In this document: one piece after another, positions 8,199 through 14,871 of the stretch
Numbering within the stretch: the stretch's first letter is position 1
Layout: each line of letters opens with the position of its first letter
Assembly: GCA_963705305.1 (NCBI GenBank)
Contig: OY970067.1
Coordinates: 3,136,001-3,200,000 of the forward strand
From: an uncultured Methylomirabilota bacterium
Lineage (GTDB): Bacteria; Methylomirabilota; Methylomirabilia; Methylomirabilales; 2-02-FULL-66-22
Direction of reading: 5' to 3'
DNA length: 64,000 nt
Position numbers and translations under genes: made by a program
Notes under the pieces: generated by a model
Database searches by the model: none
What the model was told of the DNA's origin: nothing
Seen by the model: only the letters and a program-made list of their open reading frames with translations

Positions 8199-8344
8199 GT
8201 GTCCTCCTGTGTGGGGACCTTCGGGTGTTGGGTCGGGCCGCCGACCTGCGGCCTTGCCGGCCGAAGGGATTAGCAACAACCGGGGGCGATCTCCGGTAGT
8301 GTCTCAGTTTGAATCCGGGCCCCCTGTTCGGGTCGGTCGGGACG

Positions 8345-8353
8345 TGCTATACT
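8345..8353 (+). promoter_or_regulatory. Extended -10 promoter (TGcTATACT) for a probably leaderless small ORF
   Basis: TATACT at 8348-8353, ATG at 8360, no Shine-Dalgarno. Confidence 0.55.
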
Positions 8354-8359
8354 CTCAGC

Positions 8360-8593
8360 ATGCCAAGAGGACCGCAAGGCCAAAGACGACCGGCCGACGT
8401 GATCGGAGCCGCCATCAAGGTGGCGAAGATCGCAACCGGGGAGATTGAGGACACCACGGGGCTGGAGGGGAAAGAATACGCCAGCCGAGGAGGAAAAATA
8501 GGGGGGCCAGCGCGGGCGAAGAAACTCTCCGCTAAAAGGCGTATCCTGATTGCACGGAAGGCCGCAAGATCAAGGTGGAGGAAATCTAGATAG
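8360..8593 (+). CDS. Small basic protein at the IS left end (often annotated histone-H1-like or RNA-binding)
   Basis: MPRGPQGQRRPADVIGAAIKVAKIATGE...GGKIGGPARAKKLS...IARKAARSRW. Confidence 0.75.
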   Translation: MPRGPQGQRRPADVIGAAIKVAKIATGEIEDTTGLEGKEYASRGGKIGGPARAKKLSAKRRILIARKAARSRWRKSR

Positions 8594-8900
8594 ACAGAGG
8601 AACTACCTCCTTCGATCCCACCGGTTCTGGAATCGGTCCATATTTTTCTTCGTAGGCTTTTATCAGCCTCTCAATCAAGTGGGAGAATACCTTTGCGTGT
8701 TGGGGTGAAATATAGATGCATATTTCTTCCTGAACCTTCACCTTCTCTGGAGTCGATTCAAGCACTTGACCAAATTGGATCGCGAAATCCCAAGGCGTAA
8801 TCGTAATTGAGGTGTTATTCGCGTAGACAACGGGCCTTGGATCCTTTCGTACGGTATTGATCTTTCTTACTTTCTGCGCCGCCTTCTTTGGAGTTGGCAT
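8586..8900 (-). CDS. DUF3467-like protein
   Basis: VVYANNTSITITPWDFAIQFGQ...IYISPQHAKVFSHLIERLIKAYEEKYGPIP; RBS AGGAG before ATG 8900. Confidence 0.75.
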   Translation of the reverse strand: MPTPKKAAQKVRKINTVRKDPRPVVYANNTSITITPWDFAIQFGQVLESTPEKVKVQEEICIYISPQHAKVFSHLIERLIKAYEEKYGPIPEPVGSKEVVPLSI

Positions 8901-8901
8901 C

Positions 8902-9459
8902 TCAAACTCCTGTAGATTGAGAGAAGGGTGTTGATTCATATGTGTAGGCCATGCTCTTGCCCATCGGACGAATTTGTGCATGGTACCTATGGGTAGGAGT
9001 TGAAAGTCGAGCCTTCGACTGACTTGTTAGAGTCGTATTCGCAGTGATACTGGGTGGTATCGCCGGAGCCGCTGCTACCACCGGAACTCGGATCTCCACG
9101 TTGAGGAACGTCGGATCTTGCTCAAAGGTCGGCTTAATAAGCGCGCGCTTACTAAAGCCCTCTATTTCCGCTAAGGCCTCCCCAAACGATACGAACTTCA
9201 CGGAAAGAACCACTTCCAGGGCTTTTGCGATGGATTTAAGGGTGCTTATGTTCCATTTTGAATAGTTTACGTTTTCGTATTTCGATACACCTGATTGCTT
9301 CGTTCCGATCAGTTTGGCGAGTTGAGCCTGAGTTAAATTTCTCGCGTCTCGCAATGCTTTAATTTGTGCGGCAAGAGCCGAGTCCAAGAACTCCTCTACG
9401 TAAGCATTCCGGTATTCCTCGTCTCGAAATTCTTTAATTAGATCACGCCGGCCGGGCAT
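8902..9459 (-). CDS. XRE/HTH antitoxin (HigA-like) with long C-terminal extension
   Basis: QIKALRDARNLTQAQLAKLIGTKQSGVSKYEN HTH; RBS GGAGG before ATG 9459; overlaps the toxin stop. Confidence 0.85.
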   Translation of the reverse strand: MPGRRDLIKEFRDEEYRNAYVEEFLDSALAAQIKALRDARNLTQAQLAKLIGTKQSGVSKYENVNYSKWNISTLKSIAKALEVVLSVKFVSFGEALAEIEGFSKRALIKPTFEQDPTFLNVEIRVPVVAAAPAIPPSITANTTLTSQSKARLSTPTHRYHAQIRPMGKSMAYTYESTPFSQSTGV

Positions 9460-9829
9460 ATACCCTCCTTCTGTTTGGATCGGCCGCGATTTGTTGCCTC
9501 CTCTGTTCAGCGAGTAATGGAGCGTTGGACGGGACCAGTTTCCAATTTTCTTCTCTGGCTCGGCACAACACCGTAATCCCGTCAGGCGGGTCAACAGATA
9601 CCATCGGACGAAGACGTATTATTTCTCCAATTTGCAGTTTGAAAATATGCGGCGTTTTATACTTTTTCCCTGCTCCCACGATGATTCCGGGGAGATCGTT
9701 CACATCATCGACCTGGAGTAGCATCCTGGTTTTTGTATCGAGCTGAGCTCGCTGTTTCTTCTGGAGATGGTCCCTCCAATCGGTTAGCTCCCATGTCCCA
9801 TTATCGTGTACGAATTCGAAAATTATCAC
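9443..9829 (-). CDS. RelE/HigB (phage gp49-like) toxin; start approximate
   Basis: IFEF..NG...DW..LQKKQRAQLD...IFKLQI...RLRP pattern; lies directly upstream of the HTH gene (toxin-first order). Confidence 0.65.
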   Translation of the reverse strand: MIIFEFVHDNGTWELTDWRDHLQKKQRAQLDTKTRMLLQVDDVNDLPGIIVGAGKKYKTPHIFKLQIGEIIRLRPMVSVDPPDGITVLCRAREENWKLVPSNAPLLAEQRRQQIAADPNRRRVYARPA

Positions 9830-9975
9830 TTTTTTTCTATACTGGCTACATAATTTTTTTGTTATAATCGTTGTTCGGACATAACCATTGAGTATTGAAG
9901 GGGATTTTGTTATCGACCGTGACAATATCACCAAACGTAGAGCAGACGCGAAAAAATCTTGTTTAAATGAAATTA

Positions 9976-10008
9976 ATGCTTGATACTCAAGCATAATGTT
10001 CATATACT
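9976..10008 (+). promoter_or_regulatory. Transposase promoter with palindromic operator
   Basis: TTGATA (9980-9985)-17 bp-TATACT (10003-10008); palindrome ATGCTTGA-tac-TCAAGCAT (9976-9994) covers the -35. Confidence 0.65.
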
Positions 10009-10014
10009 ATGATC

Positions 10015-10866
10015 ATGAACAAGCTGCCGACAGAGAAGCGAATACAGATCCTCCAGATGCTCTGCGAAGGGTCTTCAATGCGCAGCATCGCCCGAATTGT
10101 CGGGGTGTCGATCAACACCGTAACCAAGCTCTTGGAGGATGCGGGGGCCGCGTGCGCGGCTTATCATGACAAGGCCGTGCGGAACCTTAAGACCGCTCGC
10201 GTTCAGTGCGATGAGATTTGGTCATTCTGCTACGCCAAGGAAAAGAACGTTCCCCAGGAGAAGCGCGGCCAGGTGGGATATGGGGACGTGTGGACCTGGA
10301 CGGCCATTGACGCGGATAACAAGCTGATGATGTCCTGGCTGGTCGGGGATCGGGACGCGGGCACGGCGACAGATTTTATCGCCGATGTGAAGGACCGCCT
10401 TGCTAGCCGCGTTCAACTCACGACGGACGGACTCAAGGCGTATTTGACCGCTGTCGAGGATGCGTTCGGAGCAGACATCGATTACGCCCAACTCGTGAAG
10501 CTCTACGGCGAAGCGCCAGAAGCGGAGAAGCGGTACAGCCCGCCCGTTTGCACGGGCACACACAAGACCCGCGTTGAGGGTCATCCCGATCCGCGCCATG
10601 TCTCTACGTCCTACGTGGAGCGCCAAAACCTAAATATGCGGATGGGGATGCGCCGATTTACTCGCCTGACCAATGCGTTTTCAAAGAAGATCGAAAACCA
10701 CTGCCACGCCCTGGCGCTGTACTTCACGTTCTACAATTTCGTGCGGATTCACAAGACGCTGAGAGTCAGCCCGGCGATGGCGGCCGGAATCGAAACCCGG
10801 CTGTGGGAGATGGCGGATATCGTGCGGCTGATCGATGAGCACGAAGCGGAAAGAAAATCAAACTGA
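10015..10866 (+). CDS. IS1-family DDE transposase (single ORF with N-terminal HTH)
   Basis: [31 protein letters not shown] and [11 protein letters not shown] motifs; alternative start 10009. Confidence 0.93.
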
Positions 10867-10953
10867 GACACTACCGATTTTCCGATTGACAGGAGCGTTT
10901 TACAGGAAGTACGTTAACATCGCCTAAAAGAGAGCAAGAAGGGGTCCCAGAGC

Positions 10954-11517
10954 GTGCCCGACGAGAAGCCGCTCAGCACCGGCGAGATCGCCCGGCTTCT
11001 GCACGTCACCCGGGTCGCGGTCTTCGGTTGGATTCGCGCGGGGAAGCTCCAGGCCTACCGAATCCCAGGGGGGCATTACCGGGTTACCCGGGCGGAGTTC
11101 CGCCGGCTCGTCGCCGAATATCACATCCCCCTGGCGCTCGAACCTCCCGCTCTGCCAAGGCGCATCCTCGTGGTGGATGATGAGGCCGTGGTGCGCGAAG
11201 CGTTCGAAGCGGCCCTCACCGCGCAGGGATACCAGGTGGCTGTAGCGGCCGACGGCCGGCAAGCCCTCCGGGTGCTCCGGCGGGACCACTTCGACCTGAT
11301 CTTCCTCGATATCCTCTTGCCTGGCATCAGCGGCGCCTTCCTCCTCAAGGCTGTGAAGCGACGGGACCCCAACGCGCTCGTCGTCTTGATCACCGGCTTC
11401 CCCGATCACGACAAGACCCTGGCCGCCCTGGACTACGGGCCGGCTATGCTTTTGCGGAAGCCGATCAAGCTCGCGGACATCCAGGCAGTTCTGGAGATCG
11501 TGTTCAAGGAGTCCTAG
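10954..11517 (+). CDS. Excisionase-type HTH + receiver domain response regulator
   Basis: LSTGEIARLLHV...YRIPGGHYRV HTH; ILVVDD, FLDILLPG and KP receiver motifs. Confidence 0.88.
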   Translation: MPDEKPLSTGEIARLLHVTRVAVFGWIRAGKLQAYRIPGGHYRVTRAEFRRLVAEYHIPLALEPPALPRRILVVDDEAVVREAFEAALTAQGYQVAVAADGRQALRVLRRDHFDLIFLDILLPGISGAFLLKAVKRRDPNALVVLITGFPDHDKTLAALDYGPAMLLRKPIKLADIQAVLEIVFKES

Positions 11518-11574
11518 CCCGGCCAGGCGTGCGGCGATCCCCATCGTGCCCGGCCGTCAGCGAGAAGGAGGTGG

Positions 11575-14500
11575 GTGAGGACGGAAGAAACCAGGGTCTC
11601 TCCTGCGCCTGCCGCCGAGCCCGCCCGGCCCGATGAGCGCATGGAGAAACGCGTGAGGCGCCACTGGCTCTCGCGGCTGCGCATCCGCTTGCTCGTTCTC
11701 GTCCTCCTCGCCGTGGTGCCGGCCGCGGGCGTGATCCTCTACGCGGGGTGGGAGGGGCGCGACCAGGCCACCCTCCGGGCCCAGGCGGATCTCCAGCGGC
11801 AGGCGCGCCTGGCGGCCAGCCAGGGCGGGCCCCTGCTCGAGGGGGCCCGGGAGCTGCTCCACGCCCTCGTCGTGCTCCCCCCGGTGCAGCAGGGGGACGC
11901 CCAGGCCTGCAGCGCCCTGTTCAACACCCTCCTCGCGCAGTACCCCCAGTACGCCAATCTCGGCGTGAGCCGGGCCAACGGCAACGTCTTCTGCAGCGCC
12001 CTCGCACTGCCGGGCCCGGTGAGCCTCGCCGATCGCGGCTACTTCCGCCGGGCCCGGGCCGACCGCACCTTCGCCGTGGGCAGGTACCAAGTGGGCCGCA
12101 TCACCGGCCGGCCCGGCCTCAACTTCGGCCTCCCCGTGGTCGCGCCGGCCGGGACGGTCGCGGGGGTGGCCTTCGCGGCCCTGGACCTCGCGTGGCTCAA
12201 CGCGCTCGTGGCGCGACTGGAGCTGCCGCCGGGGACCACCCTCACCATCCTGGACCGGCAGGGAGTGCTCCTGGCCCGCGGCGAGGGGGCCGGCGCCGCC
12301 ACCGACCTGGACGGCACGCCGAGCCTCGTGGCCTTCGCGCCCCTGGGCGCGCCGGCCGCGCCCAGGGGGGTCTTCGTGAGTATCGGCGTCCCCCAGGCGC
12401 TGGTGGTGGCGGCGGCCAACCGGCTCCTCCGCCGCAGCCTCATCTGGCTGGGGGTCGTCGCCGTCCTGGCGCTCGCCGTGGCCTGGACGGGGGGCGACCT
12501 CTTCCTCCTGCGCCAGATCCAGGCGCTCCTCGCCGCCGCCCGGCGCCTGGCCGCGGGGGACCTCCGCGCCCGGAGCGGGCTGCCGGCGGGGCCGGGGGAG
12601 CTGTACCAGTTGGCCCGCGCCTTTGACGAGATGGCCGCGGCCCTGGAGGACCGGATCACCGCGCACGAACGGGCCCTGGCCGACATCGAGAGCCTGGCGC
12701 GGTTCCCCGGCGAGGACCCCAATCCCGTCCTGCGGATCCGGGAAGACGGGGCCCTGCTGTACGCCAACGAGCCCAGCGGCCCGCTCCTCCGGCTGTGGGG
12801 GATCGCCCCCGGCGGGCCGGTCCCGGCGGAGTGGGGGGTGAAAGTCCGGCAGGCCCTGGAGACAGGCGGCCAAGAGACCATAGAGCTCCTCTGCGGCGAT
12901 CGGATCTATTCGATCGACCTAACGCCCGTCTCGGCGACCCGGTACGTGAACCTCTACGGCCGGGACGTCACCGATCGCAGGCTGGCGGAGGAGACGCTGC
13001 AGCTGCGGACCCGGCAGCTCGAGACGGTCCGGGCGGTGACTGCGGAGATCACCCGCGAGCTGGACCTGACGGCGGTGCTCCTGCTCATCAGCCAACGGGC
13101 CGCGGAGCTGGCGGGGGTGGGCTTGACCACCGTCTGGTTGTGGGACGAGGCCAGCCAGACCCTGGCCCCGGGGGCGTCGTACGGCATGGGGGACTGGATG
13201 GGGAACCGGCGCCTCCGGCTAGGAGAGGGGGTCTCGGGTATCGCCGCCCAGCGGCGCGAGGGGCTCATCGTCAACGACTACCGGACTTGGCCGGCCCGCG
13301 ACCCACGGGTGATCGACCACAGCGGGGTCACCGCCATGCTCGCCGAGCCCCTGCTCTACCGGGACCAGCTCTTGGGCGTCATCCGCCTCGCCGACCAGGG
13401 GACCGGGCGGCAGTTCACAGCCGAGGACCAGGCGATGCTCCGGCTCTTCGCCGCCCAGGCCGCCATTGCCATCGAGAACGCCCGGCTGTTCCAGGGAGAG
13501 CTGAGGCGGTGGAGCCAGCTCGAGGCCATGCGCGCGGCGGGGCTGGAACTCATCCGGGAATTAGATCTTTCCGTTCTCCTCGACCTGATCCTGCACCGCG
13601 CCATGGAGCCATTGGGAAGCCAGAGCGGAACAGTATTCTTGTGGGATGAGGAGGCCCAGGTCCTTGTGCCGGCGACCTGGGTGGGGTTTGATGAGCGGCG
13701 GCACGCAGATCGCCTCCGCCTCGGCGAGGGGGTGGCCGGGACGGTGGCGCAGCGGCGGGCAGGGATGATCGTCAACGACTTCCGCACCTCTCCCTACGCG
13801 CGCTCGACCATCTTGGCGCGGACCCAGATCGCCTCCGTTCTCGCTGAGCCGCTCCTGTACCGAGAGCGGCTGGTGGGTGTGATCATCGTCAACCGTGAGA
13901 CGGGCCAGCCAGCCTTTGTGGAAGAGGAGCTGAAACTGCTCACCCTCTTTGCCCCGCTTGCCGCCACGGCCATTGAGAACGCACAGCTGTACGAGGACAC
14001 CCGTCGTCACGCCGCTGACCTCGAGGAGCGGGTGGCTGCCCGCACGGCGGAGCTCGCGGCGGCCAACGAGGAGCTCGCCGCCGCCTCCCGGCACAAGTCC
14101 GAGTTCCTCGCGAACATGTCCCACGAGCTCCGGACCCCCCTGAACGGGATCCTCGGCTTCGCCCAGATCCTCCAGGAGCAGGCGGGGCCCGCCCTGTCGG
14201 AGAAGCAGCGCCGCTACCTGGGCCACATCTACGGGAGCGGCCAGCACCTCCTCACCCTCATCAACGACATCCTCGACCTCGCGAAGGTGGAGGCGGGGAA
14301 GATCGCCCTCCAGCCCGAGCCCCTCCCGGTGGCCCAGACTCTGGAGGACCTCCTCGTCATCGCCCGGGGCCTGGCCAGCGAGAAGGGGCAGGTCCTCACG
14401 GCCGCCATTGCCCCCGACCTCCCCCCCCTCACGGCCGACCCCGTCCGGGTCAAGCAGATCCTGTTCAACCTCCTCTCGAACGCCGTGAAGTTCACCCCCG

Positions 14501-14871
14501 AGCAGGGCACCATCACCCTCACCGCCCGCGCGCTCGCAGAGGCGCCAGGGCGCGGAGACGCCGAGACAGCGGGTGATACGCGAGACACCTCACCCCAGCT
14601 CCCCGGCACCCCAGCTCCCCGGCAGTTCCTCGAACTCGCCGTGACCGACACCGGGGTCGGCATCAAGGCGGGGGACCTCCCCAAGCTCTTCCACGAGTTC
14701 ACCCAGCTCGAGACCACCCGTACGCAGGCGCACGAGGGCACCGGCCTTGGCCTCGCCCTCACCAAGCGCCTGGTCGAGCTCCACGGCGGCCGGATCTGGG
14801 CCGCCTCCCCGGGCGAGGGCCAGGGGAGCACCTTCACGGTGGTCCTGCCCCTGGGAGGGTTTCCCGCATGA
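11575..14871 (+). CDS. Membrane sensor histidine kinase (Cache-HAMP-PAS-2xGAF-HisKA-HATPase)
   Basis: Two TM segments, HAMP, FPGEDPNP PAS-like region, GAFs, FLANMSHELRTPL H-box, NLLSNAVKFT, DTGVG and GTGLGL boxes; start uncertain (alternative ATG 11641). Confidence 0.92.
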   Translation: MRTEETRVSPAPAAEPARPDERMEKRVRRHWLSRLRIRLLVLVLLAVVPAAGVILYAGWEGRDQATLRAQADLQRQARLAASQGGPLLEGARELLHALVVLPPVQQGDAQACSALFNTLLAQYPQYANLGVSRANGNVFCSALALPGPVSLADRGYFRRARADRTFAVGRYQVGRITGRPGLNFGLPVVAPAGTVAGVAFAALDLAWLNALVARLELPPGTTLTILDRQGVLLARGEGAGAATDLDGTPSLVAFAPLGAPAAPRGVFVSIGVPQALVVAAANRLLRRSLIWLGVVAVLALAVAWTGGDLFLLRQIQALLAAARRLAAGDLRARSGLPAGPGELYQLARAFDEMAAALEDRITAHERALADIESLARFPGEDPNPVLRIREDGALLYANEPSGPLLRLWGIAPGGPVPAEWGVKVRQALETGGQETIELLCGDRIYSIDLTPVSATRYVNLYGRDVTDRRLAEETLQLRTRQLETVRAVTAEITRELDLTAVLLLISQRAAELAGVGLTTVWLWDEASQTLAPGASYGMGDWMGNRRLRLGEGVSGIAAQRREGLIVNDYRTWPARDPRVIDHSGVTAMLAEPLLYRDQLLGVIRLADQGTGRQFTAEDQAMLRLFAAQAAIAIENARLFQGELRRWSQLEAMRAAGLELIRELDLSVLLDLILHRAMEPLGSQSGTVFLWDEEAQVLVPATWVGFDERRHADRLRLGEGVAGTVAQRRAGMIVNDFRTSPYARSTILARTQIASVLAEPLLYRERLVGVIIVNRETGQPAFVEEELKLLTLFAPLAATAIENAQLYEDTRRHAADLEERVAARTAELAAANEELAAASRHKSEFLANMSHELRTPLNGILGFAQILQEQAGPALSEKQRRYLGHIYGSGQHLLTLINDILDLAKVEAGKIALQPEPLPVAQTLEDLLVIARGLASEKGQVLTAAIAPDLPPLTADPVRVKQILFNLLSNAVKFTPEQGTITLTARALAEAPGRGDAETAGDTRDTSPQLPGTPAPRQFLELAVTDTGVGIKAGDLPKLFHEFTQLETTRTQAHEGTGLGLALTKRLVELHGGRIWAASPGEGQGSTFTVVLPLGGFPA
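14591..14624 (+). repeat. Octamer repeat (CACCCCAG/CTCCCCGG) inside a HATPase loop
   Basis: CACCCCAGCTCCCCGG twice; near-identical copy at 17591-17622. Confidence 0.7.

Follow-up and report, generated by a model that had tools for sequence, protein, structure and literature searches.

Can a toxin-antitoxin-chaperone (TAC) system be built without SecB? The question is raised by a three-gene operon in a 64,000-nucleotide stretch of DNA (the window) from an uncultured Methylomirabilota bacterium (assembly GCA_963705305.1, contig OY970067.1, positions 3,136,001 to 3,200,000 of the forward strand), in which genes for a HigB-like toxin and a helix-turn-helix (HTH) antitoxin of the XRE family are followed by a gene of the DUF3467 family. 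To our knowledge, every tripartite toxin-antitoxin-chaperone system described so far uses a SecB-type chaperone, and systems of this type have recently been shown to sense phage proteins. We lean towards interpreting the locus as a SecB-independent, TAC-like three-gene module that is carried as cargo by an IS1-like insertion sequence (IS), with the DUF3467 protein acting by way of a long C-terminal extension of the antitoxin.

The positions of the three genes, taken from open reading frames (ORFs) and their translations, are given in Table 1. The genes are tightly coupled on the minus strand, as the original prediction, made from the sequence of the window, had it; the first 17 nt of the antitoxin gene, whose ATG is preceded by AGGAGG, overlap the 3′ end of the toxin gene, and the ATG of the third gene lies one base past the antitoxin TGA, as had also been noted. 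The GTG start of the toxin is backed by homologues that start at the same residue, and the assignment of the third gene to DUF3467 is secured by its match to PF11950 (E 3e-14, 53.3 bits against a cut-off of 25; 52.9 bits in a scan of the genome). The predicted correspondence of gene order to that of TAC systems also holds, and the order of toxin, long HTH protein and DUF3467 is found at seven other loci, two on metagenome contigs (L031 and L032), one in the same genus (L033), and four in Acidobacteriota genomes (L048, L049, L052 and L055). The toxins of all seven match a profile of the window toxin's family with E-values of 2e-46 to 1e-6, that of L048 being the weakest. Because the gene order is repeated at seven other loci, the arrangement is not a product of chance. 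Word-indexed searches for homologues returned only two to three close relatives of each protein.

The claim that the first gene encodes a HigB-like toxin draws its support from predicted structure and none from family models, as the protein has no match among the Pfam, NCBIfam, PHROG or PADLOC models. Its AlphaFold2 model has a predicted local distance difference test score (pLDDT) of 95 and superimposes on Streptococcus pneumoniae HigB (6af4) with a Z-score of 14.2 and a root mean square deviation (rmsd) of 1.9 Å over 106 residues; the related entry 6af3 gives Z 13.6, Mycobacterium tuberculosis HigB1, itself the toxin of a TAC system, gives Z 11.7 (7awk) and 11.5 (7nbu), and many HigB, RelE, YoeB and ParE chains follow with Z-scores of 6–8. 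As modelled, gene 1 is a HigB/Gp49-like toxin with the RelE/HigB fold. A family profile built from four close homologues collects 244 representative proteins at E ≤ 0.001, and the Pfam Gp49 model (PF05973) is matched weakly by four of 100 family members (best E 9.8e-5) and not at all by the toxins of the window, L031, L033, L049 and L052. Searches of the Protein Data Bank (PDB) sequences with phmmer and with the toxin profile gave chance-level matches only, and a scan of the genome collection with the toxin alignment found nothing. The protein retains the family-invariant R74 and the near-invariant E93 and R121, and, judging by its structural relatives, it most probably acts as an endonuclease that cleaves mRNA in a ribosome-dependent manner.

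The antitoxin contains an HTH_3 domain (PF01381, E 1.3e-11, 44.8 bits against a cut-off of 23), and the pair resembles canonical Gp49/HigB-HTH pairs, such as S. pneumoniae HigBA (6af4), in the fold of the toxin, in having the toxin gene first, and in the conserved N-terminal segment of the HTH_3 antitoxin. It departs from them in its toxin, which the Pfam Gp49 model does not match, in its third gene and in its much longer antitoxin. The eight DUF3467-linked antitoxins continue for 102, 85, 83, 85, 100, 88, 125 and 117 residues after the HTH domain, whereas those of ten control Gp49-HTH pairs from the same phylum (all nine toxins scanned pass PF05973) continue for 8–28 residues and, in the alignment, stop just past the last core strand; no DUF3467 is present in any of the control stretches. 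A long extension therefore accompanies DUF3467 in 8/8 linked antitoxins and is found in 0/10 controls, so that extension length tracks the presence of the third gene.

The extension itself departs somewhat from the original description of an antitoxin tail of about 70 residues. Its richness in alanine, proline, threonine and serine, its aromatic residues and its terminal MAYTYESTPF are all present, but it begins at about residue 91, past the canonical antitoxin core, and is about 95 residues long. It has two distinct parts. The first (residues 91–122) is conserved and rich in phenylalanine (F92, F102, F112 and F118), being conserved in close relatives and recognisable by alignment in the distant linked antitoxins. 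The second (residues 123–185) is variable and of low complexity, with 51% Ala/Pro/Thr/Ser and the aromatic residues Y159, Y172, Y174 and F179, and the aromatic C-terminal end that the original prediction stressed is the least conserved part of the whole extension. On this pattern of conservation, a binding site would more plausibly lie in the Phe-rich segment than in the variable aromatic end. Excerpts of one account (PMC5105189) describe the chaperone-addiction (ChAD) region of TAC antitoxins as a disordered C-terminal extension whose sequences are dissimilar between systems and whose aromatic residues are essential, and an excerpt of another (bioRxiv 10.1101/2024.02.24.581848) gives its length in Escherichia coli HigA as 96 residues; the extension in the window is likewise long, poorly conserved and furnished with aromatic residues (Phe and Tyr). 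A prediction of the complex between two DUF3467 copies and antitoxin residues 88–185 scored 0.05 against a mark of 0.32, a result that counts neither way on binding.

That the third gene stands in the place of SecB and is not a SecB homologue, as had been proposed, is borne out at the sequence level. Comparison of the DUF3467 profile with E. coli SecB reveals no similarity (hhalign probability 0.3%), and no SecB chain is among the listed structural matches of the DUF3467 model, which is still compatible with a distant likeness. By sequence, gene 3 is thus not an ordinary SecB. Its single match in PHROGs, PADLOC and NCBIfam is phrog_7919, a family of unknown function (E 7e-7), and a phmmer search of PDB sequences yielded chance-level matches only. 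DUF3467 is a large family, a search within a set range of lengths returning 5099 proteins at E ≤ 1e-5; it is present in 34 of the 251 genomes of the phylum, and the genome of the window has a single member. SecB itself (PF02556) was found in none of 121 genomes of the phylum, including that of the window (89 genomes are at least 90% complete). The absence of SecB from the phylum was considered as an explanation of the system and dropped, because TAC systems bring their own chaperone.

The neighbours of DUF3467 genes offer a broader view of its associations. The window protein belongs to a clade marked by the residues SPQHA, and 24 loci were drawn from one genome per species solely by the motif [VI][YRF][MIF]SPQHA[KL][VA], with neighbouring genes scanned against Pfam. 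At 19 of these 24 motif-drawn loci DUF3467 abuts a two-gene cassette, and the cassettes are of at least five kinds, 14 of the 19 containing a recognised toxin domain (HigB-like, PIN, PBECR2 or a weak HicA match). HigB-like toxins with HTH proteins occur at L048, L049, L052 and L055; a PBECR2 nuclease with DUF2283 at L051 and L053, and at L054 by its near-identity to L053; a protein of 93–135 residues without a recognised domain together with a PIN protein at L057, L058, L060 and L063, and at L062, where the contig end cuts the cassette; a small ORF with a PIN protein at L056 and L066; a DUF5678-like protein with a retropepsin-like aspartyl protease at L050, L059, L065 and L071; and a weak HicA match (E 4e-4) at L064. 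No cassette neighbour is present at L061, L067, L068, L069 and L070, the last being a doubtful match. Beyond this set, a locus from the phylum survey (L030) has DUF433 and DUF5615 proteins beside DUF3467, and among five viral contigs two contain DUF3467-PBECR2-DUF2283 within a prophage lysogeny module and one has a UPF0150 (HicB-like) protein after DUF3467. Several of the partner domains are flanked by 40–90 extra residues (DUF5678 occupying residues 73–103 of 126, UPF0150 residues 52–112 of 134, and DUF433 residues 26–78 of 120).

A maximum-likelihood tree of 41 DUF3467 proteins separates 27 SPQHA members from 14 members from other contexts with branch support of 96/87, and the partner types cluster on the tree, requiring 17 changes compared to a mean of 30.1 when shuffled. 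Some of the outgroup labels (GAF, sheath) were assigned by subfamily likeness and are unconfirmed for L007, L013, L018 and L019, although the SPQHA split is independent of the labels. The proteins come from the phylum of the window and from Acidobacteriota, Chloroflexota, Bacillota, Thermodesulfobacteriota, Myxococcota and Actinomycetota. As far as can be told from gene content and phylogeny, one DUF3467 clade has been recruited to two-gene cassettes of five or more kinds, spread over at least seven phyla, and a functional tie between DUF3467 and toxin-antitoxin modules is supported by these neighbourhoods.

Together with the extension lengths, these neighbourhoods bear on an alternative in which the HigBA pair is an ordinary two-gene system, its antitoxin long-tailed by chance, and DUF3467 is an unrelated neighbour. 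We consider this very improbable. Although the third gene is linked to the pair by association only, and members of so large a family lie in many other contexts, such a neighbour would not account for the one-base gap and shared orientation, the persistence of the triad at eight loci in at least two phyla, the five or more cassette types adjoining DUF3467, or an extension whose length follows its presence.

Other settings of the DUF3467 genes are of some interest in their own right. In the Anoxybacillus-type prophages of L072 and L073 (viral contigs), L053 and L054, the DUF3467-PBECR2-DUF2283 genes lie between an S24/HTH repressor and a serine integrase. The interval between repressor and integrase is a usual site of prophage-borne defence genes. 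The family of 93–135 residues in L057, L058, L060, L062 and L063 lies between DUF3467 and a PIN protein of 177–181 residues, ends in F.(V/P)YYP(E/D)(D/Y)EE and has no Pfam match; it is likely a new antitoxin family. A third DUF3467 clade, with the signature WDD..SSYANVCNV, is directly followed by a large GAF-domain protein in L003, L004, L006, L008–L012 and L014, at all of which the adjoining homologue was confirmed (L006, from the unpublished genome G217, enters only this count). A different clade, seen in another order of the phylum (L021, L022, L024, L027 and L028), immediately precedes a gene resembling those for phage tail sheaths (PF04984); these loci could be of the contractile-injection type, with DUF3467 as a helper. 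A papain-type peptidase (PF00112) is encoded beside DUF3467 in L018, L021 and L022.

What kind of protein DUF3467 may be was approached through its predicted fold. An AlphaFold2 model computed from 71 sequences has three antiparallel strands (residues 29–34, 39–49 and 54–64) followed by a helix (66–87). Foldseek searches with this model against the PDB and against viral models gave nothing at E ≤ 0.001, and exhaustive structural alignment gave best matches to the COMM domain (Z 5.3, 57 residues, rmsd 3.5 Å), Pur-alpha (Z 4.7) and PC4/Sub1 (Z 4.0–4.2), all in the range that the alignment tool calls common arrangements. Like the DUF3467 model, these domains have three antiparallel strands followed by a C-terminal helix, but they have no sequence similarity to DUF3467, and the excerpted part of a paper on prokaryotic COMMD-like proteins makes no mention of DUF3467 or of antitoxins. 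Since Pur-alpha and PC4 bind single-stranded nucleic acid, DUF3467 could be a genuine third component that works other than through the tail, by binding operator DNA, or RNA at the site of toxin action, or by binding the toxin as a second neutraliser or activator. The position of DUF3467 directly beside the nuclease gene in PBECR2 operons and the Lys/Arg-rich N-terminus of the window protein would suit such a role. We nonetheless regard it as unlikely, as the Z-scores do not rise above those of common arrangements, the basic N-terminus is not conserved across the SPQHA clade, and such a role would not explain why long antitoxin extensions so strictly accompany DUF3467.

The operon is carried by an IS1-like insertion sequence bounded by perfect terminal inverted repeats, which contains a transposase gene, the three genes of the operon, and a small basic ORF (Table 1). 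The transposase scores 25.3 bits against PF03400 (DDE_Tnp_IS1), just above the cut-off of 24.1, and 69.5 bits (E 3.5e-19) against NF033558 (transpos_IS1), below the cut-off of 100. The element forms a low-GC island (0.38–0.51 compared to about 0.7 in the flanks) and is the only full copy in the genome; no target-site duplication was seen, the flanking 8–9 bases being different. We take the element to be akin to transporter insertion sequences, that is, insertion sequences with passenger genes, and to the IS1 family, which it resembles in its single transposase with weak IS1 signatures, its short terminal inverted repeats and the passenger genes between them, and from which it differs in its cargo of a DUF3467 cassette and a small basic ORF and in showing no target-site duplication. 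Elements with kindred ends are found at L031, L032, L033, L050 and L055, and repeats like those of the window bracket the whole gene set at L031, L033, L050 and L055, those of L055 being perfect 25-bp repeats. A related, divergently oriented transposase gene adjoins seven of the eight HigB-type triads (all except L048), a related transposase also lies next to L050, and the transposase of the L052 triad is 59% identical to that of the window. Related elements in other phyla retain this layout with a different cassette, the cassette being of the HigB type in the window and consisting of DUF3467, a DUF5678 protein and an aspartyl protease in L050, and the pattern of shared ends and differing genes indicates that this IS1-like family exchanges DUF3467-containing cassettes as cargo.

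A diverged second IS1-like region (L046; G000:C1:3235213-3237617) lies outside the window in the same genome, about 90 kb from the element. It is 71% identical in DNA sequence to the element over 342 nt of the transposase, has one repeat-like end with three mismatches, and contains a copy of the small basic ORF.

These relationships raise the alternative that DUF3467 and the small basic ORF serve the IS1-like family as accessory genes, for example as regulators of transposition, and are near toxin-antitoxin genes only as shared cargo. The association of related transposases with most triads and with L050, the terminal repeats that enclose the gene set in the window and at four other loci, and the small basic ORF at L046 would all be expected if this were so. 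We judge it quite improbable, because DUF3467 with a cassette is found without a transposase in the stretch read at L048, L051, L053, L054, L056–L060, L063–L066 and L071 and in the prophages L072 and L073, and because the second IS1-like copy in the genome of the window has just a transposase segment in common with the element, at 71% identity, and that genome contains a single DUF3467.

The favoured interpretation, a TAC-like module in which DUF3467 acts through the antitoxin extension, draws on the comparison with established systems. As described in excerpts of PMC5105189, TAC systems consist of HigBA, HicAB or MqsRA together with a SecB-homologue chaperone. The window operon shares with the HigB1-HigA1-SecBTA system of M. 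tuberculosis (Rv1955–1957), E. coli HigBAC and CmdTAC the order of toxin, antitoxin and third gene, and has a type II toxin-antitoxin pair in one operon, with a HigB fold, an HTH_3 domain and overlapping genes. Its toxin has the HigB fold, HigB1 itself being among the structural matches; its antitoxin extension is aromatic, poorly conserved and close in length to that of E. coli HigA; and DUF3467 recurs with several unrelated toxin families, much as SecBTA does with HigBA, HicAB and MqsRA. It differs in that the third protein is a DUF3467 that has no profile similarity to SecB and whose core, of about 60 residues, is predicted to fold into three strands and a single helix. A further difference is that in the non-HigB cassettes DUF3467 is encoded first, such that any extension would sit at the N-terminus of the partner.

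By analogy with SecBTA, we infer that DUF3467 binds the antitoxin extension and thereby keeps the antitoxin functional. From what is known of its family, the core of the antitoxin is likely to neutralise the toxin and to repress the operon. The association of the third gene with long extensions suggests that DUF3467 most likely holds and stabilises the extension, as SecB-type chaperones do with the ChAD tail, in which case the antitoxin would work only while DUF3467 is free to bind. We speculate that the module could also stabilise the insertion sequence or give a selectable benefit such as phage defence.

A number of observations weigh against this interpretation. First, the toxin in the window has the substitutions C78S and G80D at positions that are 95% and 93% conserved in the family, and because these are nearly invariant positions this copy of the toxin may be weakened. 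Secondly, the gene order is not constant, the DUF3467 gene closing the HigB-type operons but opening those of the other cassette types, and in the PBECR2 operons it is the nuclease gene and not that of the presumed antitoxin that lies next to DUF3467. Thirdly, because the loci were selected by motif, the proportion of 19/24 describes one clade and not the whole family; most DUF3467 genes of the phylum lie elsewhere, with a GAF-protein neighbour at 9/30 loci and a tail-sheath neighbour at 5/30, and the DUF5678/aspartyl-protease pairs are not established toxin-antitoxin systems. Fourthly, extension length was compared with that in more distant Gp49 relatives and not in DUF3467-free members of the same toxin subfamily, and because seven of eight triads adjoin a related transposase, the recurrence of the triad is in part the spread of one mobile-element family. 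Finally, the DUF3467 model is of moderate confidence (pLDDT 78) and its best structural matches are weak (PC4 reaching Z 4.2 at most); because two of the three best matching folds bind nucleic acid, another activity is possible.

Full-text literature searches on DUF3467 and PF11950 found nothing relevant to this arrangement, bioRxiv supplements, which may list DUF3467 neighbours, being outside the search. The literature searched on TAC systems and chaperone addiction deals with SecB-type chaperones only, that on tripartite toxin-antitoxin systems and third components has nothing relevant, and the earlier statement that no description of the arrangement was known thus stands for the literature searched. 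What is new here is a TAC-like module with a non-homologous third component that is carried and exchanged by an IS1-like family; the TAC plan itself is known. If our interpretation is correct, it would provide a first testable function for DUF3467, a family of thousands of members, chaperone addiction would have arisen more than once, and a large unexplored set of three-gene modules, some of them on prophages and insertion sequences, would become candidate phage-defence systems. Independently of this, the analysis reveals a family of IS1-like elements that swap DUF3467 cassettes as cargo.

A more general proposal is possible, if doubtful: that DUF3467 is a widespread holdase family, unrelated to SecB, whose members bind unfolded or extended stretches of polypeptide, and that one of its clades now serves many toxin-antitoxin families (HigB-like, PIN, PBECR2, HicA, DUF5615 and the DUF5678/protease pairs) as a portable module for addiction and sensing, in at least seven phyla, on insertion sequences and prophages. 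A phage structural protein could then compete with the antitoxin for DUF3467, leaving the tail open to degradation and setting the toxin free, as with SecBTA in HigBAC and CmdTAC. The tail-sheath neighbours of another DUF3467 clade hint at the kinds of client that might be involved.

Table 1. Positions in the window of the operon and of the insertion sequence that carries it.
Feature	Position	Strand	Description
Toxin candidate	9443-9829	-	GTG start, 128 aa
XRE-family antitoxin	8902-9459	-	185 aa; residues 1-27 conserved N-terminal segment, 33-83 HTH_3, 84-90 last core strand
Antitoxin C-terminal extension, residues 91-185	8905-9189	-	Conserved 91-122 and variable 123-185
DUF3467 protein, proposed antitoxin helper	8586-8900	-	104 aa; third gene of operon; PF11950
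AT-rich divergent intergenic region between toxin and transposase	9830-10008		Candidate operator and promoter region
Whole IS1-like insertion sequence	8294-10876		2583 bp; transposase and four passenger genes
Left terminal inverted repeat, CGGTAGTGTCTCAGTTTGA	8294-8312		19 bp, 100% complementary
Right terminal inverted repeat	10858-10876		19 bp, perfect
IS1-family-like transposase	10009-10866	+	285 aa; PF03400, NF033558
Small basic ORF	8309-8593	+	94 aa as listed; conserved part from an internal Met

The divergent region between the toxin and transposase genes contains the palindrome ATGCTTGA-gta-TCAAGCAT at 9976–9994, and L055 has two TATCGCAAATTTGCGATA palindromes in the matching position upstream of its toxin gene, in a typical operator layout. 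The palindromes of the window and of L055 are candidate operators for the HTH antitoxin. A promoter and terminator scan of 8200–10950 gave counts not above those of shuffled sequences and no convincing minus-strand promoter, and a search of sequencing runs returned one DNA run with 5% of the words and listed no RNA run.

The small basic ORF converges on the DUF3467 gene with an 8-nt overlap of the 3′ ends (11–17 nt in L031–L033) and has no Pfam or NCBIfam match. The C-terminus of its product reads GG..ARA..LS..RR..IA.KAA..RW, where the conserved pattern is GG.KGG.ARA..LS...R..IAKKAA..RW, and a profile identifies family members at L031, L032, L033, L050, L052, L059, L065 and L046.

Just outside the insertion sequence, at 10954–14871 on the plus strand, are two ORFs that look like ordinary host genes, one resembling a response regulator and bearing an HTH at its N-terminus, the other resembling a sensor kinase and 1098 residues long.

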